Shown: positions 1-50,850 of the stretch, piece after piece
How the letters are laid out: every line of letters starts with the position of its first letter
How positions within the stretch are numbered: the first letter of the stretch is position 1
NCBI GenBank assembly: GCA_945919375.1
Contig: CAMEJD010000005.1
Coordinates: forward strand, 19,304-83,303
DNA: 64,000 bases
Direction of reading: 5' to 3'
Source of the DNA: an uncultured Clostridia bacterium
GTDB lineage: Bacteria; Bacillota; Clostridia; Christensenellales; UBA1242
Notes under the pieces: model-generated
Databases searched by the model: none
What the model saw: the letters and a program-made list of their open reading frames with translations, nothing else
Told to the model about the DNA's origin: nothing
Translations under genes and position numbers: made by a program

Positions 1-3000
1 CTTTTGCTGAATAGATAAGTATTGGATTTGTTAAAGTACCTTCCGCATCACAACCATCAATGTTATATACATAATCAATTTCGCCTGTTTCTTCATTTAA
101 CTTGCTATCGTCTTCTGACAATTGATAATGTGAATAAGCTAATTCATTTGCCGAAACAAGTTGAGGTCTATATGAAACAAAGTTAATTGCGTTTTCGCTA
201 CCCTGTTTTTTAAACTCATCAACGGCAATATTTTCTATGGTATTTACTTTTCTTAACAAATAGTAATAATCACTAACACCAATTTTTTCCCCAATTTTAA
301 TGTATCTACCATTTTGAGTTTTTAGTAAATCTTTTGTTGTGTCATTATTTGCATAGAACCAAACGCCATGATTTACTTTGCTTGCACCATTAAATACAAA
401 TGTTGAGAACAATTCTTCGTTTGTAATTATTCTATTTTCAGCATCCACAATTTTATTTAAAGCAAACTCTAGTAATGATGTTTTTCTCAAAACATCGCCA
501 TCAAGCCCATCATTTGACTTATTTACATTAACATTAAAGTTATCATCATTCAAATAATAGCAATGTTTTATTTCTGCCAAGTTTGTTATAAAGAATGGAT
601 AGTTTTGTGTATCATTGTCGCCGAGTCTTGATGTTGTGTAAACATTTTCAATCAAACCTTCATTTATGCAAACAAAACCAGAGTTTTGAGATGAAGAAAT
701 AATTGGAATATTTGCATAACAATTATTTATTTCTCCTTTGTTATTATAAACAAAAGTAGATGCGATTGATGATGCTCTTACCAAATATTGAGAGTCATCA
801 CAATACATTTTCTTGTTCCCGCTTACATATTTTCCTTCAACATAACTGTTAATGATTTTTGAATTATTTGTTTTTACAAAACCTGCTGTTGAATTTTTTA
901 CATCTGGACTTGTGTTTCTTATGTAACTTTCTTTTACATAACAACTTGCAATATGTCCGTCATTATCTCCAACAAAACCAGAAAGGTTACCACCTTCACT
1001 TTCTATTCTTATTTGAACACGAGAATTTGTTATATAACCTTCATTTTTTGCGACAAATGCTGAAATATTTGAAGATGCTGTGATATCAACTGACGCATAG
1101 TTATTTACCCTTAACAAACTTGTTGAGTTCCCTGCAATTACTTCGCAGTTTGTGATGACACCTTTGTTTGAACTTGCAAAAAGTCCAAAATCAAAAGATT
1201 GAACATCAGCATTCTCAAAAGTAAAGTTAATTTCTTTGTATGAATCAATTTTTACTGTCAAATTCTTTATAATGGTATTTTCGCCAACTTCGCCAAACAC
1301 ACCAAAACTTTCAGCATTATTTATTATATAGTTGTATCTAAATATCAAACAATAACCATTTCCATCAAGTTCTCTAATATTTGTTGAGATTGGAGTGAAA
1401 TCTGTTTCAATTATTATGTCATTTAGCAATCTATATTTGCAATCTTCTTTCATATTAAGCAATTCATTATAGGTTTTTATTGGCAAATAGTTCTTTGATG
1501 AAATACTTTGATTTATGTTAACACCAACTTGTGTGTATGTCATTGATGAAACATCCTCTTCGTCAATAGTTACTTTTATATATCCGTTTCTGTATGTAAT
1601 TGTTTTTACAAGTATACGGAAACTGAATACATTTTCGCCAACGTGCTTTGGTGTTACTGAATAGCCATCAATACTCATATACTCATCGTTATAAGTTTTT
1701 GTATCTCCTGTATTGAATAGTCTTTTATATTCACCACCAATTCTATCTGCTTGATATTCAAAGTAGGCATTATTTACTATATCTTGCTTTAACTTTTTAA
1801 CTGCATTTGACGCGCTATTCGCATTTTCAAGTCTTATTTTGTCTGCAATTAAAACTCTTATATCTTTGATTGTGTTCTTAACATTAAGTTCAAGCGGGGA
1901 TGTGTCTATAAGATTTGAAATATCCAAATCGTTTCCGCTATTTATTATATCCAAAACATATTCAACAATCACAAAATCAATTGTGCCAAAAGAACTTTGT
2001 ACCCTTTGACCATTAACAATTCTTTCGCCATAATATGAAACACTTGCCTTTGCACCTTCGTCATTTTCGCCATTGCCATATGTTACAAACTCCGAAACTT
2101 TCATTTGATAACTGTCGCCATCTCTTATTATTGAAAGGTATGGAGAGTTTGAAACAATCTTAATTTCGTCAAAATTGTATCCAACTGATTTTACATCAAG
2201 TCCATATGTATAACCACGAGCAATGTATTTTACATTATTTCGAATCTCACTATCTCTGTCTTTTAATGTTACTGTTATTGATTTGTTAATATCTATAACA
2301 TAAGATTGATTATATGTTTCAAACACTTTTTCATCATTGCTGTTATAGAAGTTTATATCAATATCAACAACTTCACCTTCAATTACATTTGTGTACAATG
2401 TGTATAATAGAGTAATATCGCCATCTTTTAATGCATTTTTGTAAATTCTTATACCATTTGATGTGTAATAACTGTCTGTTGACACAACTTTTTGGTTTTC
2501 TTTTTCACTGTTTGTAAGCAAAGAGAACATAAGAATTTTTCCTGTTTGCATATTATTTGCAGAATTTGTTATTTCAACATAATCAAAATCTGCATAGAAA
2601 GGTGCAACATCAATACGAAGTATGTTTACACCACCTGCGGCAACACTATCAGATTCTTGCATTGCATAACTTGTGTTAAAGTATTCTTTTCCTGTTAGTT
2701 CATCAACTATTTTGATATTTTTGTTTGTAATATCGTTATAATTTTTTACAACAATATTATTGATTGGTTGAGAAATATATAAAACTTCAACATTTTTATA
2801 AAGACTATTTGTGCTATTTACAAATTTAAATCTATATTTCCCAATTTTTATATTTGATGTTTTCATCGAAACATTGTAAGTTTGTTTGTATAATTCATTT
2901 TCTTTTGTTTCGGTTATGGATATTTCAAAATATTCATCATTTTTGATTTTTTCCATAAATTCGCCATCAATGTAATAAATTTCCAAACTAATTTTATCAA

Positions 3001-6000
3001 GGTCTGATAATGATTTATATGTTAAGTTAATGTCAACATTGTCAATTGGAGCAAGCGTCATATTTGTTTTGTCCACACTTAAATCATAAATTCCCAAAGT
3101 AAAATTATATTTTGCTACAAATGAAGGTGTCAATTTTTGGTCAACTTCCATATTCCCGTAATTGAATAATGAAGTTATCTCATTATTTTCTTCTTTCACT
3201 GGAACAAATTGCCCAATTCTTGAATCAAAATATCTAAAATCGCCGTTCCCTAAATCATAATAAATATAGAAATAAAGTTTTTGTATGTCTACTGATTTTT
3301 CAGTACCTTTCCCTGTTAGGTAAATTACATTATTTTTTGTTTGAGAAATTGTTAAATAATCTTCACTATCTTGCAAAACTTTAATTTTTACATCAGTGTT
3401 TTCAACAAGTGTGAGCCCAATATTTCTTAACAAACTTGATGACTTTGGATATAGAGCAATAGTACTTCTGTTCAAAATTTGCAAATCCATATCTTTTGTA
3501 ATTAAGCCCTCAACTTTGTTTGAATTTGTGTATATATTGAGTGAAGTATCACTGCTAATGTAATTTGTGACAACAACTTTAAGTTCCATGTTATCTTTTA
3601 TATTTAACTTATTTTGAAGTGCCAATGTTACATTTCCAGTTTTGTGCAAAATCAATTTTCCAGTTGCTTCAACCGAAATTATTGAAGTATCCTTTGATTC
3701 AATTGTATATTCAAGAAGTGAATCATTAAACAAATCGTTTGGCAAATAGCATTCGTTCAATTGATTTATTATTTCGCTAATAACTTTGTTGCCTTGCCCG
3801 TCTTTTCCAAGGTCATAGTACATCAAAATTATTGTATTGTTTGGATAGTTGTTTGAATTATAAAAGTTTTTGAAAATTAACGATTTTTCACCTGCTTGTG
3901 CAAATGATTGGCCATTATATTGACTTCCGTCAAAACACAATATATCTCCATAATATTGAGTGAGTGATTCCGTTTTGGTTGAAACAAGAGTTCTATCAAT
4001 ATATGTTTTTGTTATTGTGCTTGTTGTTTTGTCTTTGATATTTATCATATCATCGCCATTGCAAATTGCATTATAATTTACACCGTTGTAACTTAATATC
4101 ATTGTTGCTTCCAAATCGGTTTTCATATTGTCTAATGCTTGAACTTTGCAATTTGTTATTTGGGTGTCTGTTGTGCATTCAAGATATCCAACAAGTCCAC
4201 CAATGTTTTCATAGCCGGCAACAAATAGTCTTGAAATACAATTTATATATTTGCCACCTTTTGCATAACCAACAAGTCCACCAACATTATTTGGCCTGTA
4301 TGTTTGTTGACCTGTTTGTCTATGAATATTTCCCCTAACTAAAACATTTTTAATTGTTCCGTTTTCATTATAACCGGCAATCCCACCAATACAAGATTTA
4401 CTTTCTTTGTTATTTTGTGTAAGTGGAACTACTACATTCATATTTATTGCAACTGTTGTGCCATAGTCGTTATATCTATAGATAATATCATCTTTTGTAT
4501 CAAACAAAATTGAATCTTTTTGGCCGTTGCCCTTGTTGTATCCAACTATGCCACCAAAATAGTACCTGCCTTGTATGTCTGATAATTCCAATTGATATGT
4601 GTAATCGTCTGGCATAGAAACAATCAATGTTGATTCGCATGGGAGCGAAATTTTTATTGTTCCTTCATTATATCCACAAAAACCACCAACAAAATTTTCA
4701 ACATTTCCATTTAATTTTACAAGTGACAATTTTGTTTTTTCATCACCTTGCAATATTGCATTAACATTTGTTATATTGTCTGATTTATTTAATCCGGCAA
4801 TAAGTCCAACATAACTTGATGTATTTGAATCCTCTTGGACATCAATTTTCCCACTTATAACAATGTTTTCCAAATAAGCACCGGCATTTATTATGCTAAA
4901 GAGCCCATAATATTTTGCATTGCCTTCGTTTTTTATATTACTTGGTTTTTTTACTACAAAATTTTGAATTCTTGCACCACTTTCTCCGGTAATACCACCA
5001 TTTAATACGCCAAGTGGTTCAATTTCTTCACCATTTGCATCAATTATCCCACTAACAATATAGTATTTTTCCAAATCTATATTCTTTAATTCTTGCCAAG
5101 TTGAAATATGTAATGGTGCATCTTTTGTTAAACCATTCCCAATAACGACTTCGATTTCCAAACTATATTCATATTCACTGTTAGAAAGGTAACTTGAATA
5201 AGGAACAATACAAATTTTTCCACTTCCACCCTTTCCACCAGAATATTTTAATGTAATTTTTTCTGAGTTATAAACAAAGGACAAACTTGATAAATCCGAA
5301 CCTTGGTTTGGAATTGCTTGAACAGTGTAATTTAAGTTTGTTGCATTTTCTGGCACAACATATGGATATATATCATATTCATTATTTGTTGCGTCAAGAT
5401 ATATCTTTTGAGTGTAGTTTTTAACCCAAATATCTGTAACTTTTACATATGTTTTTATGTTAATTTGAACACTTGACGACCAAACTTGTCCATATTTGTT
5501 TATTGATGCTGTAATCAAAAACTTTAAATTATCGCAGTCTTGACTATCTTCACAACTGAATTTTTGCGTTTGTGGATAGAATTTTCCAAACACAATACTT
5601 CCGCCAATTTCGGTTAATTCGTAATAGTAAATATTTGTTAAGTCTGTTGTTTTTTGCCCATCTTGTGTATAACCTTCACTCTCAACAGAAAAACTCCAAT
5701 TTATTTCTTTTATTATTTCTTCATCTTTTTTGCCACTTGATGTTATTGCATTTGCCTTAAAAGATGCATTTGCCATTAACTTGTCAATATATGGCGTGTC
5801 ATTGTAAATATCAACAATATTTTTATATTTATCGTCTTTTCTTCCGTCATTTTTGCCAAGCAAAGAGAATGAACTTAATGGTTCAAAGCATTTTATTGTA
5901 AAATCGTAAGTTTTTTCATCGTCCAACTTTTGTTCTACCAAACAAAAATCTTCAATGGTATGATAAGTCAAACTTACGGATATATTTACAAGTTTTGCAG

Positions 6001-7936: not shown

Positions 7937-7969
7937 TTTTTTCTCCATTTTTCCATTCCGTTAAGTATT

Positions 7970-16900: not shown

Positions 16901-19900
16901 AAATGCACCACCCAAGTTAATATCATATGAATATTCAGTCTTTTGTGGTAATGTCAAGTCAATGTCGCCATATACTCTTGATACTGATGCTTGGTCATTT
17001 TCGCTTTCTTGTTTGCTTGTTGCATTTACAATTGAATTGTCAAGATAACCCGCAATTCCACCAATATACAACTTTTGACCTTGTGTTTTGTTGTTTGCAA
17101 GTTTTAAAGATAAGTTTGCATAAACTTTTACATCAAAAACTTGTCCGTTTTCAAGTTTTCCAACAACAAAACCAATATTATTTGTTTTGCTTATGTTATT
17201 TATTGTTATTGAACCTTTGTTTGTTGATTTGTTACCATCTTTTTGTTCATAGTTACCAATTACAATATTTCTAAACGAAGATTCAACACTTTCGCCAACA
17301 ACTCCACCAAAATTATTATTTTGGAAGGTTATGCCACCAATTTCAATGCTTGGTATGAAACTAACATTTGTAAAAGAACATTTTCTACTTTCACCAGCAA
17401 CGCCACCTATTCTTGAATCTTGAATTGATGGAATAATTAACTCTGGCAAAACAACTTCCTTTTTCCCATCCAAGTTTGTATTTGAGTTTGCTACACTTAC
17501 TTCGGCATATTCAACACCACCCAAGAAAGCACCAATGCTGATATTCTTAAATATTGGGTTTGTTTTGCCTTCACCCAAGATTACTTGGTTATCTCTTTTG
17601 TTTGTTATTTCAATGCTTATTGATTTTGAATCGTTGTTCAATATGGATTGAACATTACCTATTACCAAACCAATATAAGATTTGTTTGAATCGTTGCCAA
17701 GATATTCATTTGCAAAATTGATTTTTGAGTTATTTACACTAACATTTATCAAAGAATTTGAGTCATATGACAACTTCCCTTCACCAAACAACAAACCAGT
17801 ATTTATTTTGTTTGGACTGCTCTTTATGTTGATTTGGCAAGATTCGAATGTAATGTTATTAAATTTGCATGAACCTTTTGCCACAGCACACAATACACCA
17901 ACATTAAGGTTTCCGGTATTATATTCTTCAATATTTATACCACTAAATGTCAAACTGTTGAATGATGTGTTATTTGCAGTTCTAACCAAAACAGAAGTAC
18001 TATTCAAACTGCTTGATTGTTTTATACCGTCACTATATTTTACAACAAAGTTACTTAAAGTTGCACCTAGTGTTGTTTCAAACAATGCTCTTGTTTGGTC
18101 GGTTTTGTAAATAAATCCGTATGTTGATTCTGGGTCTTCACCGCCACGAAGTACATTTGAGAATCCAACAATTGGAGCAATGTATCTTGTGATTCCAATA
18201 TAGTGTTCTTTGCCGATGTGAACATTTTCTGGTGAGTTATCAGGTTCAATTATGTATGTAACTTTTCCCGATGACACACTTGTTCTTAACTTTTCTAGAT
18301 CTCTTTGGTTTTTAATTTTTATTGTTTTGTCAAAATATCCAAATACCATATGTGGATAAAGTTCGTCAGTATCTCTTTGCCAAGAATTTGCATCCCAGTT
18401 GTTTGCAAAGAAGATATAGTCAAAGTATTCACCAAATTCATAACCTTCGGCATACTTTGTATTTACGTCTGCTTGGGTTTCTTTTATTCCTTCCCAAGCA
18501 TTTGCAGACGTTGGGTCATTTGCAAAACCATAATTTTGGTCTAGCCTATATGAATCAGAAATTCTTGATTTTGATGTGCTACTTCCGTCTTTTTCATTAT
18601 TGATTATTGGGTCAATGCCGTTTTTGTTTGAGTCAAATATCCAAGATCCCCACAAATTCAAAGCATTCACTCTTTCCAAAATTGTAGTTTTTGCTGTATC
18701 AGTGTTCAAATCTCTACCAACAACACCTGCTGTATATTCTTTTGCTCTAACATCACCGGTTGCATAAACTTCGGTTAGTTTTGTTGCATCGTCATCACCA
18801 GAAAGAATATTAACAATACCAATAATTCCGCCGGCAACTGATGAATTTGTATTTACAACATTCAATTTTGAATATGATTTTTCAATTTTTCCACTTTCTT
18901 GCAAGCCAACAAGTCCACCAACTGCAATTGGGTTATAATTGCTGTTATAGAACAAATCTTTGTTCCCTAATTCAATTGTTGAATTTTCATAATTATGAAT
19001 GCCATTTTCTTCTGTGTAATAACTTAAACTATTCTTTTCAATCAATTCTTGCAAGGTTAAGTTGTTTTCTATGTCAAAGATATTTACATTATCATTTTCT
19101 GACTTAACTTGTCTTAAATACCCTTTATTAATACCAGCAATTCCACCTGCAAAACCATTATATGAATAAAGTCCTTGTTTTGAGTAATCTAAAATAGATT
19201 TTGAATATGGCATAAATTGTATGTCTTGCATTGTTGTTTGTGGTCCAATATATCCCGAGATACCACCAACAGTTCCACCGGTTACTACCATATTCCCAAC
19301 GTTTTTAAGTGCAACACCAGTTGCATTTGAAATTACTGTCACTTCTGTGAACTTGTAATTATCTTTTGTTTGGGCTGTATAATAATCTATAACACCGGCA
19401 ATGCCACCTGCATATGATATGGTTGAATTGTCACCAAATCTCAAATATTTATTAAATGTATCAATTTCACCAATAGTTTTAATTGAAGTTGTGTAATAAG
19501 CAGATGTAACATTGATATTTTCAACTGTGTCGTTAAATAAGTGAGATTCACCTTTAACCAAACCAACAAGTCCACCAACAATGTTTTTACCTCTAATTGT
19601 AACATTGTCCGCTTTATTTAATGCGCTAATATTTACATTGATAATTTTTGAATCAATAATTTGACCTGCAATTGTTCCAACATTTTCAATATTTTTTGCT
19701 TCAATACCAAATATTTCTTTTTCGTTGTTTTGGTCACCAACAACAACATTAAGGTTGATAACAAGTGCACCACCTTCCAACCTGCTGAACAATCCAAAAC
19801 TATCTAAAGATTTATTGTTACCTGAATCAGTTAATGCAAAATTGCTTATTGTAAAGCCATTGCCATCAAGTTTTCCAGTTGCTCTTGTGTTATAACTTCC

Positions 19901-22900
19901 ACTAAGAGTTTTTACTGATGATGTTAAATCATATTTTTCCGAACCTGTTGCCAAGTCATGTAAATCAATATTATCTATTAACCTATAATTACCAAATGCA
20001 ATTGTTTTTGTTGAGTCGTCAACAAATCTATCAACACTCTTGTTTGCAGTTCCAGAAAATGCTTCGTTGAAATCTTTTGCATTTCTAATAAGAATTGGAT
20101 TGTTTATTGAACCATATGCAAAATTATCTACATATGCTGTTTTTGGTTTTGAAAGGTTTTCACTTTCTTTGCTTGTGTATCTTAACGAAACCGCAATATC
20201 ATTTGCACTAACAAGGTCAGGACCTTGAGTTGTCATTTTCCAAATTCCATCATTATATGTTGTCGCAAAGTTAAAACCATAGAAGTATTCTTCAATAATT
20301 ACAGATGACACAGATGTTGCACTTTCGCCATATGCTTTTTGGAATGAGATTGAGTCACTTTCCAAAGCAACTTGGTCATAATAATAGCTGTTTGTGATTG
20401 AATCTTTGTCACTAATGTAATTCCCAAGTTCGTCAACACCAGAGAAATTCATTTGTGTTGTTGTTGAACTGATAATTCTTGAAAGCGACAATGCGTTTTT
20501 GACTTTCCCACCTTGTGTATTTGAGTAAACAAAACCGGCACTTGACCTTCCTGGGTTATTTTGAAGGTTTGTTAAGTTGATATTTGAGTAACAATCACTA
20601 ACATTACCTTTGTTTTGATATACAAAACCTGAAGCAATCCCAGATGTTTCAATTCCAAATCTTGTTGCATGAATATCTGTTTCCAAGGCTTTTACACCTT
20701 TTGAATAACTCATACTGATTGTGCCATTATTGTTGATAACAAAACCAGAAGTTATTGTTGTGTAATTTATTTGAGAATTGTTTATGATTCTTACGTTAGA
20801 AGCAAAACTGCTTGTTATACTACCATTATTTTCATATACAAATCCCGCAATTTCGCCAAAAGAGTTAATTGTAAATACAGGCAAATCATAGTTTGAAGAA
20901 TTGCCACCATAAGAATATCTATATTTGATATCTTTCACACTTCCCGACTTGTCAACTTTATAAACATCAAGTTTTGTTCCGCCAACTCTACTATTTGTTA
21001 TAGTCCCATTGTTATACATAACAAAACCGGCTGTTTTTGCTGTAACTTTTGTGGTTGAATCTGTTGAGATAAGAATTCCTGTTGATTGTTGTCTTATGTC
21101 GGCACTAACATCAAAATAGTTTACAACTTCACTATTTGTAATTATACCATTATTGTTAATTGCCATTGGTGCAACATTGATTTCGCTTGTTTGTGAACTA
21201 TCAATGTTTATTGTACCAATATTGTAAATATTCAAGCGAATATTTTTTAATAATGTATTAGTTTCTACATTTTCAAATAATGTAAAGTTTGTTACACCTT
21301 GTGCAAAACTTACAATAGAGATTGTGTAACCATTTCCATCCAAACTTGCAATACTTGCTGTTGATGCAATTGGTGTATACTCATACAATCTTATATCTCT
21401 CATCAAGATGTAATGCTCTTCACTTTCGGCATTGAATTTTTCCAAGAATTCATCTGCGGTGAAGATTTGAACAGGTTCATCATCATTTAATTCTGCTTTG
21501 ATTTCAATTGTAAAGTAATATTTATAAATAGTTCTGTTGCCGTCTGGCATTTGAACTGGTAATTCAAGCAACATTTTTTGTGAACCAATTGTTTTTCCAA
21601 TATAGTGCAATACGGCATCAGTTCCTTCGCCAACTTCACTAAATTCAACAATATTATTTTCAATATATTTGTTTGTTGTTGAATTATAGATTGGAGTTTT
21701 TGTATCACCATTAACATAATATAAGTTTGACCTTAATACTTTTGCTTTTGATGAATTGCCAAGGGTTTTGTTTACGCCGAATCCGTTTTGACTGTTAGAA
21801 TAGCAATAATTGTTTGAAATAAAGTATTCAAATTGTTTTTGACCATATTTTGTATACTTACCTGCAAAATCAAAGTCAAGTTCGTGTTCAAAGTATATAT
21901 CGCCAAAGGCTTTGTCTTTGCTATTGCTATTTTTTATTGCTGTGTTTTCAATATCAAAATCAAAAGGAATAATATAAATTAACATTTGTGAAGTCAAAGT
22001 TTCTTCAATTCCGTTGATAACTCTTGATGTTTCAACTATCATTGTTACATCTTTGAAACTTGTTTCACTTAGTGTTACTGTAAATGTTCCCTTTTCATAT
22101 GTTGCATCAATATCTTGCCAGTCATTATTAAATAATATTGTTCCAAACCCTGTGTCAACTTCTTTACCATCAACAACAGCTGAAAGTTTGTAATTATTTT
22201 TTAATGTTTGTGATTTATCTTTTATAACTTGAACTGTTAATGTATCACCCAAAAGTGCAAAATATGTTCCACTTTCTCCGTCTATGCTAAGTCCCGGAGT
22301 TACAGGCGGATTTACTAATAATGAATACACTTGTGTATATACTATAATGTTATCTTTATTATATACATTTATATATATATCAAATATTGTGTTTGTTTTG
22401 ATATCTGAAGATGCAAGGGCACGAACATAGAATCTTGAAATATCATTATTAAGATTTGAATTCTTTTTGAAGATTTTTACACCATTTTCAATAAATTCAA
22501 AATTCATAAGTTTGTCTACAAAGTATGCAGATGAGTCACCTTCTTCGTCACCCTTTCTCATACTTAACAATGCTAATTTTTGACCATTAACTGGTTGGCT
22601 TGTCACTGTGATATATTCAAAATTAGCATATGAAGGATAAATCATAACATCCAGCAAACTTGGTTTTGTTGTTGATATTGTGTTTGTTGGATAATAGTTA
22701 TATCTTTCACCCCCAACAACTTTTGAAGTTTCTCTATATGAATAGTTATTTATATCAATTCTAATGATTTCTTGGTCAATTACAACAATTTTTAAATCTA
22801 CATAAACTGATGAATAAATATTCCCCGCATAAAATCTAACAATATAGTATGCCGAATCAATTAAACTTAATTTTTCTTTGTTTAGTTCAATTGACAAATC

Positions 22901-25900
22901 GTAATATGTTGTTTCATTGTTTGTATGGCAAGAATAAACATATGCATTAAATAATCCTAGTTCATTTGATTTGTTTAACATCAAACTTGAACTATCTTGA
23001 CTGAATATTTTTATTCCATTTTCATCAAATATTTCACAAGCAAGTTGTTCATCTTGAACATCCGAGTTGATATTTACTTGGAATTCCAAGGAATCGCTTG
23101 CAGACATATTTACTTCTTTTACGGAAATTGCAATGCTGTTTGGACCTTGCAAAGGTTTTAAAGTTAATGTTTTTAGTGTGTTATTTTTGAGAATTTTTGC
23201 AAAATTATCATTAAGACCATTAAGTCTTAAGTAAATTGACATATTCAAATCATCATCGCTATTTAATGAGATTAAGTGTGTTCCAATTTTATTTCCAACG
23301 ACGTTATTAAGTTTTGTTTCATCGTCTTTATTTTCAAAAACAACATCAAAATCACTTGTTTGCAATGAGAATTTTGTTTGATTTAGGACAATATTTTCAT
23401 CAAGTGAAGTAATAAATTTTTGAGTTGTCCCCTTCTTTAACCCAATTGTATATCCACTTGGCAATGTATAATCATTGTAAGAAATTGTAAAGTTGTTAGT
23501 ATTGTAGATAACCTTTATGTTTATTGTAACAGGGTCAATGCTTCTATCATATTTTGAACTAATAGTCAAAACAGCATCCCCTATGTTGTTTACTTGAAGC
23601 GTTCCATTTGTTAAAGTCAAAATATTTGAATTTGATTCAATATTAAGACCATAAATACCTGAAATACCAAACAAATCTAACAAACTAATTGTATTTTTTT
23701 GTAATAATGCTTTATTTTCTCTTTCGGTCAGTGTTTGAACTGTTTTATTTACAAAAAGAATTGCATTATTTTCATCTTGTTTAAATGAAAGGTTTGTTCT
23801 TTGGATTTGCAAACCTGAGAGTTCACTTGCAGTAATTGGAATAATTCTCTTTACGTCTCTCAAATATGGATAACCAAAGTTTTGTTGCAAGTCACCATTA
23901 TTTAACCAAGTTTCAGAATTGCCAAATTTTACACCATTATATATATAGTTAAAATCTGTGGCTGTTCCCGTTAAGGTTTGTCCATTTTGTTTTGTCATAT
24001 AAAAAGTAAATTCATAAGAATCATTATTTTTGTAAGTTATGTAACAATCTTTGATTACTTTTTTATCATCTACATTTTGTGAAAGTTCGCCAAAAATGTT
24101 TTGTGCAACGCCCAAATTTGCAAAACTTTCTGTAATTTTTGCATTTATACTACTAATTTTCCCAACAAGTCCAATAATGTTTGCATCGTTTGCAATTGCA
24201 TTATTTTTGCCAAAGTTATATGCATATGACTTTGTTATTGTGCCTTTTTCGGCAATTTCTCCAACAAAACCAGCATACACTTGACCTTGCATAGACATTT
24301 GGTTGGCGCCATCCTTTAGGTCATAGAAGATTACTTTGCAATTTTCAATAATACCTGTATTTTTTCCAGCAATTCCACCAACAACCGACAAATTATTACT
24401 GCCAAGAACTGAACCTTGGAAAGTTACATTTGATATTGTGCCATTGTTTTGACCAACAACACCACCAACATATTCACTATCATTTTGAACAAATGAGTAA
24501 TTTTCTTGAGAGTAAGAATCAATTGTAACATTATCAATTTTACCATTGTTTACATTTGCAATTGAACCTGCACCATTTGTTACACTGCATACGACATCAA
24601 AATCTGCAACAACTGCATCCTCACCAATTTCACCAAATATATGAGAATTTAGTGTTAATGTTGCTTTAAAGTTTGAATGTGAGAGTTGTCCATAAAGTCC
24701 ACCATTAAACTTTTCGAATAATTCTGTGTCAACAGTAAGGTTAGATATTGCTGTATAGTGCAAATCTCTGTTTGTAATTTGACTTGCATCAGTAATTCTT
24801 ACAGAAGTTTCTCTTGATTTTCCATCTGCAACTGTTAAATATATTCTGGCAATTGGTGTATTTTCTCTATAGTATGTGTTACCATTTTTGTCCAATAAAA
24901 TTGCATCAGTTGGAACAATTACAATAGTACCCTTGCCACCATATTCGCCAGTTACACTAACAAGACCATCATTTGAAATTGTTATAATATCATTTCTTGT
25001 CCCATTTTCTGGGTAGAAAATATATGAGACATCTTTAACAAGTGCATTTTCAGGAAGCACATCATTTATAATTTTAAAGTTATTATCGTTATACTCATTT
25101 GATATAGATTTTGCTGACAAATATAAATTGTATTCGTTATTTGTTACATCAACATTCGTTGGAATGATTTGTTCTACTCTTTGTGCTTGTTGAATTACAA
25201 AATTGATTTCTTTTACATAGTGTGTCAAATTTCCACCAATATCATTTGCAAAAATATACATTTGAATCAAATTGCTACTATCTTCAATTCTAAAGTTTGC
25301 AGTAACAACATAACTATTACCCAATTTTTCTATAACAAGTTGTGTATCATTATATTGTGGTGAAAAATATTCATAAGGGTTATTTTCATCAACAACTATT
25401 CCACTTTCATAATCAGGAGATTCAGCAAAATAAACTCTATCATATGTTGCTGGAGAATTTGCATCGTTTATCTTTACTGTGAATGTGTATTTTGAAAGTG
25501 CTTTATTTCTTTCGCCGACTTCATTGTAGGCATAAAGTTCAATAACACGGTCACTTATTGTCAATGATTGCACTGGGTTATAAACTTCAACAAGGAAGTA
25601 TTTATCTATTTCACAAGGTACCAATTCATAATTTTCATTAAGCATTGAGCCAACAAAAGTTGCTTTTACCCAAACTTTTCCAAGTTTTAATGTTGTAAGG
25701 TAATCATTTGACCTTAAAACTTCTGTGCTTAGTATATCTGATGATTGCGACATATTAAGTTCTTGAAAATTTAGCCCGTTGAATTTAACATAGTCACTAT
25801 TTTCGTCATAAACATCGTCATTTACCGAAAGTTCTCTATCAAAGAATTCAAACAAAACATTTGAAGTCATATTTGATGTAAATTTAAGTGGGACCATACG

Positions 25901-27796
25901 CCCATTTTTTATTGCGATATAACTCAAATTGCCATCTTGGTTGTATGACAATTTCCCAACAGCAGATGAAACATAATTCATTAAATCAACATCAATGCCA
26001 ACATTTGTCAATCTTTCAATAACTTTGATATTTGCTTTGATTTGTTGACCGGACTCAAACTTAAATATCAATATTCCTTCGCCTACTGAATTTTTTGTTG
26101 CCGTTACATGAACTTTGTAAATTGCTCTATCGTCTTCTTTTGACTCCAATTGAACATTGCCAACACTAAATACCCCGTCACCACTAATTAGAACTGACAA
26201 ATTTTCAATTTCAATACTTGCAGGAGAAACCGCAAAGAATATATCCCTTTCATTTAGCAATTGTTCTTCTTGTTCTTCATTTTGTGTAGGTTTGTTTTCA
26301 AAGTAGAATGTTTTTTCACTTTCAATTGTGTCACCAGTAACAAAACCAAAACCTCTTACACCTTCTTTTAGGTTGAAATTGATTGTTTTTGTGACAACAT
26401 TTTCATTTTCGTCATTATTATTTGATATTGTCAAAGGAATGATTTTGTTTTCTTGACTTACTTTTGCAATAAGATAAAAAACCTTTCCACTTGCAAATTC
26501 AAACTTACCGTTAACAAATTGTCCGTTAAGTTCTGTTCCGTTTTCATCCATAATTGACATATATGCCAAATCTTGTGCATCAACAGAAAGAACAAAGTTT
26601 GAATTAACCGCTGTGAATGGGATTGCATCAAATCTTACTTTTAGACCTCTTGAATTGGAATAACTCGTGTACAAATTGAATTGGTCATTTGTCACATTAA
26701 CATCATTAACACTTACTTGGATTCCGGTTATTTCGTCATAAGCAGTAAGAGTTATAACTCCAACATTGTTACCTTGGTCATCAACTTTATCTTTTGTACT
26801 TGACTTGATTTCTGGGAAATCTGCATAAGATAATTCAAACCAAACCTTGTCCGTTATTGTTCCTATTTTTTGAGTTTGCAAAAAACCGAACTTAAAGGAA
26901 TATTCATAAACTTGATTTTGTGTGTCATTTAAAACAAATTGTTCATCAACATTAAGTCCCATATCTCCATATGCATATACCGGTTTTACATTGATGAGTT
27001 TGTTTGAAACTGCATAAGGTACAACAACTTTTAAAAGCAATTGATTTTTTCTTGGGTTATTTCTTGGAATATTGTATTCAAGTTTTGCATCAACATTATT
27101 ATCTTCTTTGATTTCAACCAAAGAAATATCAATTGACTTAACAACTTCAAAATGCAGAGTTGTTTTCACACTTTCATTATAAACGGAAATAACCTCGACA
27201 TCAATTCCTGTGGGAATAACATCAAGGTTTGGTTCAACGACCAAATAGTTATTAGCAATACTAACACCATCAATCTCGGAAGCGAGGGCATACTTTATTC
27301 CGGTTTGACTTGTTGCTTCTGGGAGCAATTCAACAAGGTCATTTGACAATTTGTAAATACCACCGCTTATTTTGTTGTATTCAAAATAATATGTATCTTT
27401 TTTGGAAACTATGGAAGAAATTGGAGAGGATGCCGAAACTCTAAAAGTTTTTGATACTTTTGCGCCTTTAACCAATACATCTACATTAAAACATTGATGA
27501 AGGGCTTTTACAGTTATTTCTGTAATTCCATCACCTTTGTATTTTGATGTAACGACAATATCCGAACTATCGTAATCAATAACAACTTCCTTTGTCTTTG
27601 CATCAGTTACAACTGCTTGCAAAGTGTCAGTGTCATCATTTTTGCCAAGGGTTATTTCGACATTAGTTTTGCTTAACTCAAGTTTCATATTATTATCATT
27701 TTCACAACCTGAAAGAACTGTGCCACCAAGCACAAGTAAAGCAAGACTAAATAATAAAATCCATTTTTTAAATTTTCGCATAGCTGTCTCCTCCAT
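7970..27796 (-). CDS. Giant surface lipoprotein, 6608 aa as tracked and about 6603 aa from the likelier start at 27781. It has Ig-like N-terminal modules, about seven blocks of GLUG-type repeats and a central hydrophobic helix cluster.
   Basis: Uninterrupted ORF in the track. N-terminus ..MRKFKKWILLFSLALLVLGGTVLSGC has a signal peptide and lipobox LSGC. GGAGGAG lies 7 nt upstream of the ATG at 27781. Dozens of motifs such as VGGIAGKNTGIIENC, VGGLVGLVKGES, IGGLVGYNKGDV and AGFVYENNGSITSS match what I recall of the Pfam GLUG motif. I noticed no LPXTG and no HEXXH or other catalytic motif by eye. Confidence 0.9.
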   Translation of the reverse strand: MEETAMRKFKKWILLFSLALLVLGGTVLSGCENDNNMKLELSKTNVEITLGKNDDTDTLQAVVTDAKTKEVVIDYDSSDIVVTSKYKGDGITEITVKALHQCFNVDVLVKGAKVSKTFRVSASSPISSIVSKKDTYYFEYNKISGGIYKLSNDLVELLPEATSQTGIKYALASEIDGVSIANNYLVVEPNLDVIPTGIDVEVISVYNESVKTTLHFEVVKSIDISLVEIKEDNNVDAKLEYNIPRNNPRKNQLLLKVVVPYAVSNKLINVKPVYAYGDMGLNVDEQFVLNDTQNQVYEYSFKFGFLQTQKIGTITDKVWFELSYADFPEIKSSTKDKVDDQGNNVGVITLTAYDEITGIQVSVNDVNVTNDQFNLYTSYSNSRGLKVRFDAIPFTAVNSNFVLSVDAQDLAYMSIMDENGTELNGQFVNGKFEFASGKVFYLIAKVSQENKIIPLTISNNNDENENVVTKTINFNLKEGVRGFGFVTGDTIESEKTFYFENKPTQNEEQEEQLLNERDIFFAVSPASIEIENLSVLISGDGVFSVGNVQLESKEDDRAIYKVHVTATKNSVGEGILIFKFESGQQIKANIKVIERLTNVGIDVDLMNYVSSAVGKLSYNQDGNLSYIAIKNGRMVPLKFTSNMTSNVLFEFFDRELSVNDDVYDENSDYVKFNGLNFQELNMSQSSDILSTEVLRSNDYLTTLKLGKVWVKATFVGSMLNENYELVPCEIDKYFLVEVYNPVQSLTISDRVIELYAYNEVGERNKALSKYTFTVKINDANSPATYDRVYFAESPDYESGIVVDENNPYEYFSPQYNDTQLVIEKLGNSYVVTANFRIEDSSNLIQMYIFANDIGGNLTHYVKEINFVIQQAQRVEQIIPTNVDVTNNEYNLYLSAKSISNEYNDNNFKIINDVLPENALVKDVSYIFYPENGTRNDIITISNDGLVSVTGEYGGKGTIVIVPTDAILLDKNGNTYYRENTPIARIYLTVADGKSRETSVRITDASQITNRDLHYTAISNLTVDTELFEKFNGGLYGQLSHSNFKATLTLNSHIFGEIGEDAVVADFDVVCSVTNGAGSIANVNNGKIDNVTIDSYSQENYSFVQNDSEYVGGVVGQNNGTISNVTFQGSVLGSNNLSVVGGIAGKNTGIIENCKVIFYDLKDGANQMSMQGQVYAGFVGEIAEKGTITKSYAYNFGKNNAIANDANIIGLVGKISSINAKITESFANLGVAQNIFGELSQNVDDKKVIKDCYITYKNNDSYEFTFYMTKQNGQTLTGTATDFNYIYNGVKFGNSETWLNNGDLQQNFGYPYLRDVKRIIPITASELSGLQIQRTNLSFKQDENNAILFVNKTVQTLTERENKALLQKNTISLLDLFGISGIYGLNIESNSNILTLTNGTLQVNNIGDAVLTISSKYDRSIDPVTINIKVIYNTNNFTISYNDYTLPSGYTIGLKKGTTQKFITSLDENIVLNQTKFSLQTSDFDVVFENKDDETKLNNVVGNKIGTHLISLNSDDDLNMSIYLRLNGLNDNFAKILKNNTLKTLTLKPLQGPNSIAISVKEVNMSASDSLEFQVNINSDVQDEQLACEIFDENGIKIFSQDSSSLMLNKSNELGLFNAYVYSCHTNNETTYYDLSIELNKEKLSLIDSAYYIVRFYAGNIYSSVYVDLKIVVIDQEIIRIDINNYSYRETSKVVGGERYNYYPTNTISTTKPSLLDVMIYPSYANFEYITVTSQPVNGQKLALLSMRKGDEEGDSSAYFVDKLMNFEFIENGVKIFKKNSNLNNDISRFYVRALASSDIKTNTIFDIYINVYNKDNIIVYTQVYSLLVNPPVTPGLSIDGESGTYFALLGDTLTVQVIKDKSQTLKNNYKLSAVVDGKEVDTGFGTILFNNDWQDIDATYEKGTFTVTLSETSFKDVTMIVETSRVINGIEETLTSQMLIYIIPFDFDIENTAIKNSNSKDKAFGDIYFEHELDFDFAGKYTKYGQKQFEYFISNNYCYSNSQNGFGVNKTLGNSSKAKVLRSNLYYVNGDTKTPIYNSTTNKYIENNIVEFSEVGEGTDAVLHYIGKTIGSQKMLLELPVQMPDGNRTIYKYYFTIEIKAELNDDEPVQIFTADEFLEKFNAESEEHYILMRDIRLYEYTPIASTASIASLDGNGYTISIVSFAQGVTNFTLFENVETNTLLKNIRLNIYNIGTINIDSSQTSEINVAPMAINNNGIITNSEVVNYFDVSADIRQQSTGILISTDSTTKVTAKTAGFVMYNNGTITNSRVGGTKLDVYKVDKSGSVKDIKYRYSYGGNSSNYDLPVFTINSFGEIAGFVYENNGSITSSFASNVRIINNSQINYTTITSGFVINNNGTISMSYSKGVKALETDIHATRFGIETSGIASGFVYQNKGNVSDCYSNINLTNLQNNPGRSSAGFVYSNTQGGKVKNALSLSRIISSTTTQMNFSGVDELGNYISDKDSITNSYYYDQVALESDSISFQKAYGESATSVSSVIIEEYFYGFNFATTYNDGIWKMTTQGPDLVSANDIAVSLRYTSKESENLSKPKTAYVDNFAYGSINNPILIRNAKDFNEAFSGTANKSVDRFVDDSTKTIAFGNYRLIDNIDLHDLATGSEKYDLTSSVKTLSGSYNTRATGKLDGNGFTISNFALTDSGNNKSLDSFGLFSRLEGGALVINLNVVVGDQNNEKEIFGIEAKNIENVGTIAGQIIDSKIINVNISALNKADNVTIRGKNIVGGLVGLVKGESHLFNDTVENINVTSAYYTTSIKTIGEIDTFNKYLRFGDNSTISYAGGIAGVIDYYTAQTKDNYKFTEVTVISNATGVALKNVGNMVVTGGTVGGISGYIGPQTTMQDIQFMPYSKSILDYSKQGLYSYNGFAGGIAGINKGYLRQVKSENDNVNIFDIENNLTLQELIEKNSLSYYTEENGIHNYENSTIELGNKDLFYNSNYNPIAVGGLVGLQESGKIEKSYSKLNVVNTNSSVAGGIIGIVNILSGDDDATKLTEVYATGDVRAKEYTAGVVGRDLNTDTAKTTILERVNALNLWGSWIFDSNKNGIDPIINNEKDGSSTSKSRISDSYRLDQNYGFANDPTSANAWEGIKETQADVNTKYAEGYEFGEYFDYIFFANNWDANSWQRDTDELYPHMVFGYFDKTIKIKNQRDLEKLRTSVSSGKVTYIIEPDNSPENVHIGKEHYIGITRYIAPIVGFSNVLRGGEDPESTYGFIYKTDQTRALFETTLGATLSNFVVKYSDGIKQSSSLNSTSVLVRTANNTSFNSLTFSGINIEEYNTGNLNVGVLCAVAKGSCKFNNITFESCQINIKSSPNKINTGLLFGEGKLSYDSNSLINVSVNNSKINFANEYLGNDSNKSYIGLVIGNVQSILNNDSKSISIEITNKRDNQVILGEGKTNPIFKNISIGAFLGGVEYAEVSVANSNTNLDGKKEVVLPELIIPSIQDSRIGGVAGESRKCSFTNVSFIPSIEIGGITFQNNNFGGVVGESVESSFRNIVIGNYEQKDGNKSTNKGSITINNISKTNNIGFVVGKLENGQVFDVKVYANLSLKLANNKTQGQKLYIGGIAGYLDNSIVNATSKQESENDQASVSRVYGDIDLTLPQKTEYSYDINLGGAFGFVKNSKVFNCYTTGDMRVDSKNNEKNLVVLYTSGLIAYMQDELGKDASVVSNNISAGSIYPNYEQTTNNDNVSIKYDMYQSFVYGGIVGKIESEVANHTISNNYSISTLYNKADNRIGKDGTSINAIIGEGIVDDKSVQNKYSNVYTLCTDEHTSATENMKLADLLNNSIKGKLNPKVKDSEYFIEGTKVNYATRLPSAKTKEIEVSKQYIYLGTDIIELSETTPITLKNSAIVGDGAILKLDSSKGQTKNMAPFGTIDSDSFVSGIVTTSLINNITSISTGANGIPSASGFAYKNQGIIYSCNAGNRNGTTLAESINRGYVTSKGYAAGFVDTNDGLIKNCFTYLDVSSTYKGVSSSSEKESANITLAGFARNNDGYIVTSFATGTVDNSTKKEDEDNNGLVYAFAPGKVYGSYTIAKISDEGKLKTITLKDKRFAFDENETTNSYYDKFAIEANISDDNNSLGKPTDSMAVSYANTNDSVDSYYGDFAIDKNYAFGYGSFSNVSYKNIDYMKFATGTGEETNPYRVPNLGKLKQLPENAQYTTLAYFVLDNNMDGEYISSGRKNLLNWTSKDISNVNLDGRKFDYYQKNINEQFVIANMTCNKGGIFSNIQNSTINNVIFDNVIVNNVTSISSLGLLANSISEKTKITNVTMVINVKTLSSSLGSVNGIENDRPYCLGLIVGECNVKEDANTTPNGILNCTIQLKSNGDGDANIELKPNINWIFGGAVGVLNSGRVSAISFISGSSEKGNGLSQISIQFAEGSALTGKTYIVGGIVGQQKGGKIYDAFVGCDLHIFDNIKNNNADQTLYAGGIVGKSESGEISNCYTNEVSIVAGNHVEFLETYAGGISGYGGTIKNCKNLASVNSQAAYYYRSFLTYEVEKETTMSESQLETDGYKKDPDTGAYIKRDDTNENVIGYAVKNDSGSYDVFTDDAKFNEDNIKESIDGELNRNNGFTRTKSQFGIKTYVNSNKFQEYYNYYKKGEWFDSYSKLLYTRIQQKAYSAGIANSYNSIENSLNLSQDIHGGMDSMNIHSVYDAEIWRFATRISITAAVITGLDTAHDLAAIIPVQSISKPIMATCLIAGIAATSLAMAFSFPLYERYFAGNGYEYLNNKDLYYIGNQYNNSGVNVSSVKTYVTGYNFNLTSEFETLGISVLSKAGTAILKKVISLITAGKVGVIGTNIALVVPNAIDVAANIVPQLITIDDWVFPIGWAQPVDSGAITPDKLKEISQNKNYTLNTLSYGGKDYYNSDSLNVYDVYFDPIGFPANGGKLTNTMSKYQMYKGIEVAGKNYYGLFDNSTYTNEEGKEQNVFEAFNVVYNDKNTISKLTTAASDSEIENAFGTQGDWEKVNDEWKLTNEIKKADIKDLLENVKVSGKDVIITIDNENTNVQPYELYNKAVELINNIDKTGYIENQQDAQTTIKLTSIKSINRTERRFIINVNAKVVGAQYALGTEEYPFNGKIVGAGQYSLTQMQFTEIAIPSLIDYAGDVEIENLKFSYTSNNKNISLDNNKNVGGLVGNVQDGGKVIIDNVNVTYSLQDYKIDTKGNTKSGKYPNSIGGLVGYNKGDVTIINSNIAKLNIDLNGYEYKDLINANSGHLGIGGFVGTNVGSLTVQDSEINDMQISARYSFNNIFGGLVGSNLGNIAEISNVTIGNYKKSVIDAESNQENIYVGGAFGYQNGNVELMSTVSIALKGIYAQTSNKNATTYAGGFVGFVDTNSKFKDVENVYVGKQETSIDDSGKYYQRMLIYSGIGGSSYANKAYADDIIGNRNNNGIVGTLSSSIKVNTKSLSLAKFTYNRVPQKANNVDSKKLLSDSSILNNTNLYYEETYQRSSTKLGISKQTVLSGYIKVDAYEYSSESFSGTNSNAYVNGEQYTSYNYHKAYLVNVIHMDRLSFESTINSKKQGEDRYEFTEVLYKVELKGEPSKDGEFSMDKNVGISLIAYNGYITDIDIYENYKTQAYPITDRYESYLPKSVDRHLFKVDESKLPKEDDDNSKFEDDNYEYETPFVSCGYEGVDTTTAFKNKFAYLDELNNQIKCSFSITDSTMVSSEMKESTQYTYKTIEFAVEDNRFKATISFDKTMVKDENVTISSESIIREIPYIYSTDDSNKIVYELQETMQDCFGDVTYEHFDMRYDIGNKTMAYNILPKHEQTVKNETSFKTYMSKEFNMDSGSRVRIAIISQRKRDSDGNSGYKVVDYVYLIKDSITYYMGTTTYNLAFDDNDNETRNSLERNELFVPVNATNCENNLLPLNECKEADTCEIVNSYVQKDIYYFVNVKNEIMKEVVTKEFSAIYTFTIGQFGIKLTLTKNILNSDEKTDSNPISNYNNYDIYYQRGEDGRESGKYSINDYSVTEKDNSKVIVVSYTDNTVHPNVKTTITFTYEYDNNEISLIEKVENGSHEVIYKSSYTTIGKLSYRVSGNTIFYKFEGNEQEYTLLGQYDVTYNNNLYTFTNKDSDAKIKNFIIDENKKLVSVVYKQFDFYVKEDYTSNIISISKNSLFTDVLQVARDMQAILITQFDGKEFSSNTFITQNNNVPNPYYSLNVNNALSSSEIQKFSSNLEKIQLTIVENIYVYAINDNLKIYKNANPIYEKNNITSGLAINNVTKSKSGDVQWVEVDYGTSKIKIDIESGKEFIGYEESSLTTKYDSSIKVNYETYKYQDSTIFDITNYQKIEIESKDVTLETLIPIEKSSGIRYAIKTSTNEYYLLNGGYRLSSKVSNSGISITEKTYEIFGGVTGTFDYISVDVTYKTNDHEYSIKQNLMVQVGEIKSSLSQSSLDTKPGLNIEGSKYVEKSKNVTLKNLTDDGYEKLKDGNGKDVVDSNGNYIYIKNITDENDDIVATNRAVGKGNSENDVYILYEQVKQTTKITQIVRSVQGSSSDITITDILKMEVYNDNASKPEIKNPKYIYKIKTAQKNIYDAITVVETDTSIFQSEYFIEDKHQTESWAYYITVGGENIFGIDITRPEI

Positions 27797-27853: not shown

Positions 27854-27882
27854 AGTATATATTTTAATCAATTGCAAGTCAA
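27854..27882 (-). promoter_or_regulatory. Candidate sigma-A-type promoter of the giant operon: TTGACT-N17-TATACT.
   Basis: On the reverse strand the -35 TTGACT is at 27882-27877 and the -10 TATACT at 27859-27854, with a 17-nt spacer. It lies about 70 nt upstream of the start codon. AT-rich DNA produces such matches by chance. Confidence 0.3.
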
Positions 27883-28037
27883 CTATTTTATGTCGAAATT
27901 TAAACAAAATTATTTTTTTTACATTTTTTTATTGTCAGAATATTAAAATAAATTCAATATTTAATTAAAATAAATAATTGAAAAAAAATAAACATATTTT
28001 AACAAGTTAAAATATGAATATTAGGAAAAATTATTTT

Positions 28038-28289
28038 TTAATTATTTTTTAATTTTAAATATTTTTGTTTTGTTGACTGTCCACCTCGAATATGTTTTTC
28101 GGAAAAATTTTTATCCAATATTATTTGTATTTTTTCAAACAATTGATAATTTATTTTTTTTAATTTTTTATGTATGTCATTATGCACTGTGCTTTTTGAA
28201 TAATTAAATACCTTTGCAGTTTGTCTTATTGTTGCATTATTGTCCAAAATATAAGTTGCAAAATTTAACACTCTATCATAATTTTTCAC
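28038..28289 (-). CDS. spoIIID: Sporulation stage III transcriptional regulator SpoIIID.
   Basis: 83 aa. The motifs ..YSKSTVHNDI.. and ..RGGQSTKQKY.. match B. subtilis SpoIIID (VSKSTVHKDL, RGGEATKLKY) as I recall it. Size and HTH position fit. Confidence 0.9.
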   Translation of the reverse strand: MKNYDRVLNFATYILDNNATIRQTAKVFNYSKSTVHNDIHKKLKKINYQLFEKIQIILDKNFSEKHIRGGQSTKQKYLKLKNN

Positions 28290-28435: not shown

Positions 28436-28468
28436 ATATAAAACCAAGAAAATGTGATTATTTTCTTG
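28436..28468 (-). terminator. Hairpin overlapping the acpP stop codon, a putative intrinsic terminator.
   Basis: The reverse-strand RNA forms CAAGAAAAU-aaucac-AUUUUCUUG followed by GGUUUUAUAUUG. Confidence 0.35.
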
Positions 28469-28685: not shown

Positions 28686-28704
28686 AACGTCCTCCACTAT
28701 GCAT

Positions 28705-29383: not shown

Positions 29384-29460
29384 TTTTACCTCCACAATGG
29401 TTATTGACAAATTTTTTGGTATTATACATAAAAGTTAAAAAATTTTTAGTGTAATAATTT

Positions 29461-50819: not shown

Positions 50820-50850
50820 AAATTTTTATTTAATTGGAAATTATCAACTA

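Follow-up and report, generated by a model that had tools for sequence, protein, structure and literature searches.

The N-terminal domain of immunoglobulin A1 (IgA1) protease consists of a small subdomain and a beta-helix, binds the Fab of IgA1 and gates the active site, and the catalysis itself resides in other domains of the enzyme (PMC7695701). Modules that resemble this domain are encoded in a 64,000-nt stretch of the genome of an uncultured Clostridia bacterium (contig CAMEJD010000005.1, positions 19,304–83,303; hereafter the window, in whose coordinates positions are given). The window contains two adjacent giant genes on the minus strand, here called A and B, whose products are predicted to be lipoproteins. 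Sequence comparison and the modeling of one module allow us to assume that the A/B pair is probably a lipid-tethered surface coat or a multivalent adhesin, and not an enzyme.

The modules of A and B have the same layout as the N-terminal domain of the Streptococcus pneumoniae IgA1 protease (6XJA/6XJB) and the Bacteroides ovatus protein BACOVA_03286 (3N6Z), namely a lead-in and a short right-handed GLUG beta-helix. However, in contrast to IgA1 protease, A and B do not contain the M26 catalytic domain, the HExxH motif, the G5 domain or the LPxTG signal, and their module is repeated 3 to ~7 times within lipoproteins of 3.2k–6.6k amino acids (aa). The sequence identity to IgA1 protease and 3N6Z is ~11–12%, and the template modeling scores (TM-scores) are 0.32–0.42.

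The giant proteins Ebh/Embp, LapA and SiiE resemble A and B in that they belong to the megadalton class, are acidic, beta-rich and extracellular, are anchored at one end and are most variable at the distal end. Giant adhesins are the closest analogy for the way in which the pair might work. At the same time, Ebh/Embp, Bap and the RTX/BIg adhesins are built of many near-identical tandem repeats, whereas A and B have none at the sequence level. The giant adhesins carry a C-terminal transmembrane segment, an LPxTG signal or a type I secretion signal, whereas A and B have a predicted N-terminal lipid anchor. In addition, unlike giant adhesins, their family keeps its collinearity over the whole length at 25% identity, and A and B form a paralogous pair.

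The S-layer proteins of Bacillota (4UID) share with A and B an acidic isoelectric point (pI) and an Ig-like N-terminal domain, the latter on the basis of a weak match of the B-family profile to the Ig-like domain of 4uid_A (E 7e-4). The strong sigma-A-type promoter with a long 5' untranslated region is a further likeness and fits the reading of the pair as a coat. However, A and B lack SLH and CWB2 domains, are 3 to 10 times larger and would be anchored to lipid and not to the wall. According to a preprint on giant proteins of Clostridia and Omnitrophota, very large predicted proteins with proposed surface or binding roles occur in gut and environmental metagenomes, and those surveyed exceed 10,000 aa, have multiple transmembrane segments or contain RCC1, beta-propeller or dockerin repeats; a term search of the text gave no match to "lipoprotein" or "GLUG", and the present family is not covered (bioRxiv 10.1101/2023.11.21.568195). 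A and B can be assigned to a known kind, the giant Gram-positive surface proteins with Ig-like and beta-helix domains. Their family departs from the known giants in its predicted N-terminal lipid anchor, its lack of tandem repeats, its end-to-end collinear conservation under purifying selection, and its obligate paralogous pair with a conserved genomic position and promoter.

Family and Paralogy of A and B

An exhaustive HMMER search with a profile of the region shared by A and B (cut-off E ≤ 1e-3) showed that the family comprises at least 287 cluster representatives, with 133 at E ≤ 1e-30. Its members fall into two length classes, an A-type of ~4.5–6.6k aa and a B-type of ~3.0–3.6k aa, and the module matched by the profile is located at ~1650–2520 in the A-type and at ~1690–2640 in the B-type proteins. 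Protein A was found to be 60% identical over its whole length to the best representative and collinear with members at 26–30% identity across ~4200 aa. The B-type proteins can be aligned collinearly over their whole length at 25% identity.

A comparison of a 27-sequence A-family alignment with a 28-sequence B-family alignment using hhalign gave a single collinear match of A 9–3033 with B 1–3041 (probability 100%, E 6e-183). Judging from this alignment, A and B are paralogues that arose as ancient duplicates. Since A is collinear with B over ~3000 aa, it can be described as a B-like core with a C-terminal extension of ~3500 aa. Conservation continues within it up to about residue 4450, and the remaining part is variable, with low alignment occupancy.

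Orphan status of A was rejected, as orthologues of 40% identity were found in metagenome-assembled genomes (MAGs) of GTDB in addition to the 287 representatives. Word-indexed protein searches with A 1600–2900 and A 1–1000 gave zero matches, and with an alignment as the query they returned only proteins of ≤744 aa, though members of 3–6.6k aa are present in the same collection. Because the exhaustive search did find the representatives, these results reflect a limit of word-indexed searching for giant proteins. A literature search on GLUG and beta-helix, and on giant lipoproteins in Christensenellales, revealed nothing relevant. The family is spread across uncultured gut Clostridia and is unnamed and unstudied, its members being labeled "hypothetical protein" with no other name. 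Thus, A and B did not prove to be ordinary members of a characterized family with the same architecture, an outcome that would have spoken against an earlier reading of the window made from its letters alone (hereafter the sequence-only reading).

Integrity of the Giant Genes

An independent sister metagenome contig, L081, is 83% identical at the DNA level to positions 1–17939 of the window and carries both genes with intact frames. In comparison with L081, the C-terminal half of A showed 76% aa identity and a ratio of nonsynonymous to synonymous substitution rates (dN/dS) of 0.23, climbing to 0.4–0.5 toward the C-terminus, while B showed 89% aa identity and a dN/dS of 0.09 with no frame disruptions. 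The proteins of the closest 90%-identity cluster of A have lengths of 6563–6569 aa in six independent assemblies. The GC content of the giant genes (0.28–0.33) is the same as that of neighboring genes, and a 6608-codon open frame in DNA of 30% GC cannot be due to chance. A and B are genuine genes under purifying selection.

No tandem array scoring >57, and nothing relevant to the giant genes, was found using TRF, and no internal protein repeats were found by self-BLASTP. The sole dispersed DNA repeats were degenerate matches of ~40 nt (62–80%) encoding the GLUG turn V-G-G-L-V-G. Since the genes are non-repetitive at the DNA level, the worry about repeat collapse does not apply. The possibility, raised by the sequence-only reading, that the repeats are assembly artefacts was ruled out by the absence of long DNA repeats and by the same lengths in independent assemblies, and both gene length and gene order proved to be conserved in relatives. 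The possibility of a pseudogene was also rejected.

Lipoprotein Signals and Transcription Unit

The sequence-only reading had described two co-directional reverse-strand frames of 6608 and at least 2645 codons, separated by a 33-nt gap with GGAG and no hairpin and amounting to at least 9250 codons and 43% of the window. The coordinates and a terminator scan agreed with this description: from its ATG at 7936, the frame of B runs without a stop through 2645 codons until the window ends, the sum is 9253 codons (6608 + 2645), and the pair spans 27796 of the 64,000 nt. The length of A was revised at one end. Its frame was confirmed, but translation probably begins at the second ATG (27781), which gives a product of 6603 aa, since GGAGGAG is located 6 nt before this ATG and the orthologues (MKRFKK..., MQKLRKW...) all begin at the equivalent Met. 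Protein A has a calculated pI of 4.8 and a mass of ~732 kDa; the full-length B of L081 comprises ~3213 aa (~360 kDa, pI 4.8), and the acidity of both proteins is uniform along the chain.

The N-termini of both proteins pass a regular-expression rule of the PROSITE PS51257 type (basic n-region, hydrophobic h-region, [LVI][ASTVI][GAS]-C, Cys at 15–35). The lipobox of A is VLSG-C, with the Cys at position 31 from the first ATG and 26 from the likely start, and that of B is TLYG-C, with Cys23. Across the 28 aligned B-family sequences the lipobox Cys never varies, and it is likewise conserved among the 27 aligned A-family sequences; 86 of the 102 full-length family representatives pass the same rule. 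The signal peptides and lipoboxes named in the sequence-only reading are thus retained, and we infer that A and B are lipidated surface proteins and predicted substrates of Lgt/Lsp.

The GGAG ribosome-binding site (RBS) of B is located at 7943–7946, seven bases before its ATG, and no terminator-like site was found within window positions 7000–9000, which span the A–B junction. The order of an A-type gene and then a B-type gene with a short or overlapping junction was found in L081, L082, L083, L084, L086 and L087, distant relatives among them. The junction is short in L081, measures 42 nt in L082, 18 nt in L084 and 23 nt in L086, and is an overlap in L087. Since B of L081 ends at a long hairpin with a T-run terminator and the next gene has its own promoter, these signals define an A–B transcription unit of ~29.5 kb. 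The earlier claim of one transcription unit is upheld by the A-then-B order in distant relatives and by the terminator after B in L081.

A third gene is located 3' of B in L081 (19788–22595) and L082 (19799–22618). It encodes a protein of 936–939 aa and has its own promoter (TTGACA/TATAAT in L081) and terminator. The product carries an N-terminal transmembrane anchor where A and B have a lipobox. It also has an Ig-like domain and a lead-in with the sequence FTGTFDGNF, and it gave no Pfam match.

A promoter of the form TTGAC(T/A)-17/18-TATA(A/C)T was found ~100 nt before the start of the giant gene in 12 of 12 orthologous loci, or 13 with the window. This conserved signal suggests high constitutive expression of the pair.

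Two further elements were observed in this region. A G/C-containing element, ATGTCGAA, is located near the –35 box of the giant-gene promoter, with an inverted copy at 27890–27898 in the window. It also occurs in the promoters of L006–L008 and L016, that is, in three lineages whose spacers are otherwise >80% AT, and it is a candidate binding site for a regulator. Its GACA core may resemble SpoIIID sites. In one subclade (L019, L020, L026, L030), a palindrome ATTTGC-N3-5-GCAAAT is conserved in the 5' untranslated region just upstream of the RBS, ~20–40 nt before the giant-gene start codon. This palindrome might serve as an operator or form a stem-loop in the mRNA.

Domain Architecture and Structural Modeling

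A and B, with boundary-spanning tiles included, were searched against Pfam-A and NCBIfam, and nothing beyond GLUG (PF07581, a 28-residue motif with a gathering score of 20.5 bits) was found. GLUG exceeded the gathering score in the tiles A 951–1900 (26.5 bits), A 4751–5700 (22.9 bits) and B 901–1800 (35.2 bits), and the boundary-spanning tiles gave 24.1 and 25.3 bits. GLUG was also the only Pfam match in three distant B-type orthologues. The motif GG[LIV][VAIF]G was counted 16 times in A against 4 times in B. Of exact LDGNG[YF], A has two copies and B a single one, and the motif marks the lead-in of only some beta-helix modules. Thus, of the vocabulary that the sequence-only reading had ascribed to both proteins, the GLUG turns stand, and the relationship has grown into full paralogy over ~3000 aa, but the exact LDGNG[YF] motif is rare.

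Both proteins start with an Ig-like domain that recurs at ~aa 500–600; in A, the second copy is located at ~aa 515–598. Several modules with GLUG turns follow (Table 1), and conservation within the family is highest in module 2 of A. Modeling of A 2100–2530 using AlphaFold2, with an input alignment of 21 GLUG proteins, led to a right-handed beta-helix with a predicted TM-score (pTM) of 0.80 and a predicted local distance difference test score (pLDDT) of 72.9. The top Foldseek matches of this model in the PDB were the IgA1 protease 6xja (E 2.5e-4, query TM-score 0.42) and 3n6z (E 9e-4), with a probability of 1.00. The B-family profile also matched 3n6z, the B. ovatus "putative IgA1 protease" (E 6e-3), with the lead-in and the coils aligned, while PDB searches with A and B as single sequences gave no match. 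On the strength of the model, the modules are beta-helices like that of the IgA1 protease N-terminal domain. The modeled module and the N-terminal domain are beta-helical and Ig-like, respectively, and the remainder of the chain is presumably of the same build.

This likeness raises the alternative that A and B are relatives of the M26 IgA1-protease-type metalloproteases. The GLUG motifs, the fold and profile matches to 6xja and 3n6z and a faint precomputed match to Peptidase_M26_N in the orthologue P0024 would fit such a relationship. However, the likeness is limited to the non-catalytic N-terminal domain. No Pfam match to SLH, CWB2, G5, RTX or Peptidase_M26 was found in A or B, and neither protein contains an LPxTG signal (searched as LPxT[GAS]) or a C-terminal transmembrane segment. 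The motifs HExxH and HxxEH were absent from A, B and the B orthologue of L081, so that membership in M26 was refuted by the missing zinc site, and we give practically no weight to this alternative. The absence of HExxH and LPxTG and of any Pfam domain but GLUG agrees with the sequence-only reading, in which no catalytic, sortase or classical adhesin signature had been seen.

Beta-helices are also the fold of PL1, PL6 and GH28 enzymes and of phage tailspikes, and the two proteins could accordingly be surface-tethered enzymes that degrade glycans. Foldseek matches to the fucoidan lyase FdlA, PL6 lyases, pectate lyases and GH110 (E 3e-3 to 0.2) and the glycan-rich gut habitat are consistent with this. 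The lyase matches are, however, weaker (TM-scores 0.15–0.33) than those to the IgA1-protease type, and no lyase or hydrolase family was found by Pfam, NCBIfam or PDB sequence searches. The invariant columns of the A and B families are mostly Gly, Asn, Tyr and Phe (also Trp) and never His, which therefore points to the signature of a scaffold and not of an enzyme; the invariant sites form a Gly/Asn/aromatic ladder with no conserved acidic or basic cluster. A glycan-degrading role is thus improbable.

The A-specific extension contains clusters of GLUG coils at 3334–3579, 3718, 3924–4003 and 4313–4446 and a lead-in at 4157. A PDB profile search with A 3030–4300 gave no match, only chance profilin hits. 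At ~aa 4680–4733 is a Gly/Ala-rich hydrophobic hairpin with a Kyte–Doolittle hydropathy of up to 2.0 in A and 2.55 in P0012. It recurs at ~70% of the length in many A-type orthologues, is not present in B-type proteins, and has the conserved motifs AGIANSYNSI..NSLNLS and YFAGNGYEY on either side. The hairpin might anchor the protein to a membrane a second time, insert into a membrane or simply consist of buried helices. The distal part that follows gave no Pfam or PDB match apart from GLUG.

The hairpin and the C-terminal third of A could also be understood as a delivery or toxin scaffold that inserts into a target membrane or carries polymorphic effectors. The variability and higher dN/dS of the C-terminal region and the conservation of the transmembrane-like hairpin at ~aa 4700 in many A-type proteins can be read in this way. 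However, no toxin, immunity, secretion-system or defence domain was found in the A/B region by Pfam and PADLOC, and in the loci examined, the next gene is always the paralogue of 3.2k aa and never a small immunity gene. In addition, GLUG beta-helix coils continue into the variable region, and the locus belongs to the core chromosome and not to an island. A delivery function is very unlikely on these grounds.

Table 1. Features of the A/B locus and of the genes upstream of it (window coordinates).
Feature	Position	Strand	Basis or remark
Gene B, giant lipoprotein, 5' part only	1..7936	-	≥2645 aa to window edge
B third lead-in start (GTLTNPILIYSAK), cut by window edge	2..37	-	Module whole in L081, aa 2634–3100
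B lead-in and beta-helix module 2, aa 2145–2544	305..1504	-	LDGNGY at 2190
B beta-helix module 1, aa ~935–1255	4172..5134	-	Pfam GLUG, module HMM
B signal peptide and lipobox (MKRFIKLFSIIFALAFVITLYG-C)	7868..7936	-	Translation, family alignment
A–B spacer, 33 nt	7937..7969	-	A TAA stop 7972–7970, B ATG 7936
Gene A, giant lipoprotein	7970..27796	-	6608 codons from first ATG (ORF list, translation)
A variable distal part, aa ~4734–6608	7973..13597	-	GLUG cluster 5152–5347
A Gly/Ala-rich hydrophobic hairpin, transmembrane-like, aa ~4680–4733	13598..13759	-	
A-specific extension, conserved part, aa ~3300–4490	14327..17899	-	Alignment, module HMM
A lead-in (NPILIRNAKDF...LDGNGF) and beta-helix module 3, aa ~2560–3030	18707..20119	-	Motifs, module HMM
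A lead-in and beta-helix module 2, aa 2098–2530	20207..21505	-	LDGNGY at 2152; module HMM, model
A beta-helix module 1 with GLUG turns, aa ~940–1320	23837..24979	-	Pfam GLUG, module HMM, Gly/Asn pattern
A N-terminal Ig-like domain, aa 35–128	27413..27694	-	hhalign with B Ig-like profile
A signal peptide and lipobox (MRKFKKWILLFSLALLVLGGTVLSG-C)	27704..27781	-	Translation, family alignment
Ribosome-binding site GGAGGAG for ATG 27781	27787..27793	-	
Sigma-A-type promoter TTGACT-17-TATACT of gene A	27854..27882	-	~75–100 nt upstream of start codon
spoIIID	28038-28289	-	Pfam 1e-29; within 1-kb "gap" upstream of gene A
Acyl-carrier-protein (ACP) gene	28458-28697	-	
M23/LytM peptidase with N-terminal transmembrane segment, SpoIIQ-like	28799-29410	-	

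Genomic Neighborhood

Upstream of gene A are spoIIID, the ACP gene and the gene of the SpoIIQ-like M23 peptidase. The order M23, ACP, spoIIID and giant lipoprotein was also found in L006–L009, L019, L020, L026, L030 and L085, and the relatives that keep this order have Mfd proteins only 44–64% identical. In L086, spoIIID is located directly upstream of the giant gene.

Both this kept order, with the pair directly downstream of the three genes, and the presence of ATGTCGAA near –35 in three lineages are consistent with a sporulation-linked component that is made in sporulation and located on the engulfing or forespore membranes or on the spore surface. However, spoIIID is followed by its own AT-rich palindrome and T-run (27993–28016), located before the gene A promoter. 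The conserved TTGACT-17/18-TATAAT promoter is of the sigma-A type and not of the sigma-E, -K, -F or -G type, and gene order alone is weak functional evidence. A role of the pair in sporulation is therefore considered unlikely.

Other neighboring genes belong to the core chromosome and include pth, mfd, a lipoprotein gene and genes of an MprF-like transmembrane protein, a polysaccharide deacetylase, an Fe-ADH-like protein and dnaB/dnaI-like proteins. The lipoprotein gene (34411–36039, minus strand; 542 aa, …FVLTGC) is located directly downstream of mfd, occupies the same position in L001 and L007, and gave no Pfam match. Rfam and tRNA scans of the window gave no matches.

The best Mfd match among GTDB species genomes was found with "Christensenella sp. 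UBA5893" (91%), followed by MAGs at 62–68%, which assigns the window to the uncultured Clostridia; the window is 86% identical to UBA5893 at the DNA level across 20.8 kb. In UBA5893 (L001, DJER01000007.1, 20786–23414), synteny ends ~60 nt after the M23 gene, where ACP, spoIIID and the giant gene give way to a fragment of an IS30-like transposase plus an unrelated gene. This break could be a loss, a rearrangement or a mis-join of the MAG.

At 48341–61244, the window contains a region that resembles a type IV secretion or conjugation-like cluster. It includes a 770-aa open reading frame (ORF) with no Pfam match (48341–50653, minus strand), a type IV secretion pilin (50851–51216, minus strand), a VirD4/TraG coupling protein (51618–53594, plus strand) and a third giant ORF (53787–61244, plus strand). 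The latter encodes 2485 aa with a signal peptide and gave no Pfam match, and BLASTP showed no relationship of its product to A and B. At 48–50 kb, the GC content rises to 0.35.

Proposed Function of the A/B Pair

As a coat or adhesin, each protein would be exported by Sec and lipidated by Lgt/Lsp on the conserved Cys, which is proposed because the signal peptide and lipobox are conserved. The N-terminus would be tethered to the outer face of the cytoplasmic membrane and the C-terminus would be distal, so that each protein would form a long, acidic, beta-rich chain reaching outward. Along this chain, Ig-like sandwich domains would take turns with GLUG modules folded as right-handed beta-helices, of which B would have at least 3 and A ~7. 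A small lead-in subdomain would precede each module. The membrane-proximal 3000–4400 aa would be the conserved part and the distal C-terminal third of A the variable one. The pair could then act as a constitutively and strongly expressed scaffold presenting many beta-helix binding faces; this is proposed because the sole characterized relative of the module is non-catalytic and protein-binding, and because no catalytic signature is conserved. Co-transcription and the A-then-B order suggest that A and B act jointly in fixed proportion.

Among the functions suggested by the sequence-only reading, an adhesin or coat is now favored. The spore-surface option was weakened by the sigma-A promoter, although the synteny with spoIIID is real, and the delivery scaffold found little support.

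Several points weigh against a lipid-tethered coat or adhesin. A host-facing adhesin would not usually show a dN/dS as low as that of B or lengths kept so constant, and because of this strong purifying selection and length conservation, a structural or physiological role in the envelope fits better than an adhesin. A usable model was obtained for only ~430 of ~9800 residues; AlphaFold2 with a two-sequence A/B alignment gave a pLDDT of 36 and this model was discarded, and the TM-scores to 6xja and 3n6z are modest. In addition, the internal hydrophobic hairpin of A is unaccounted for by a simple fibril model, and the deeply conserved linkage to spoIIID might reflect a different biology.

In a more speculative proposal, which we regard as rather unlikely, the pair would be building blocks of an envelope superstructure so far unrecognized in this deep clade of uncultured gut Clostridia, a lipid-tethered, non-repetitive megadalton coat of defined length. 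A would be pinned again, or inserted in a forespore, partner or host membrane, via its hairpin, and the position next to the spoIIQ-like gene and spoIIID would indicate a link to envelope remodeling.

The two proteins take up ~30 kb of a small AT-rich genome and are under a near-consensus promoter. Because of this investment, the promoter and the fact that purifying selection has kept the pair collinear throughout a deep clade, A and B are likely to be dominant surface components. As such, they are likely determinants of how the bacterium deals with mucus, immunoglobulins, phages and neighboring cells. The host clade is a deep group of common gut Clostridia without cultured, studied members. 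Defining the family provides an annotation handle for hundreds of "hypothetical" giant ORFs, and its IgA1-protease-like beta-helix offers a tractable module for binding studies.

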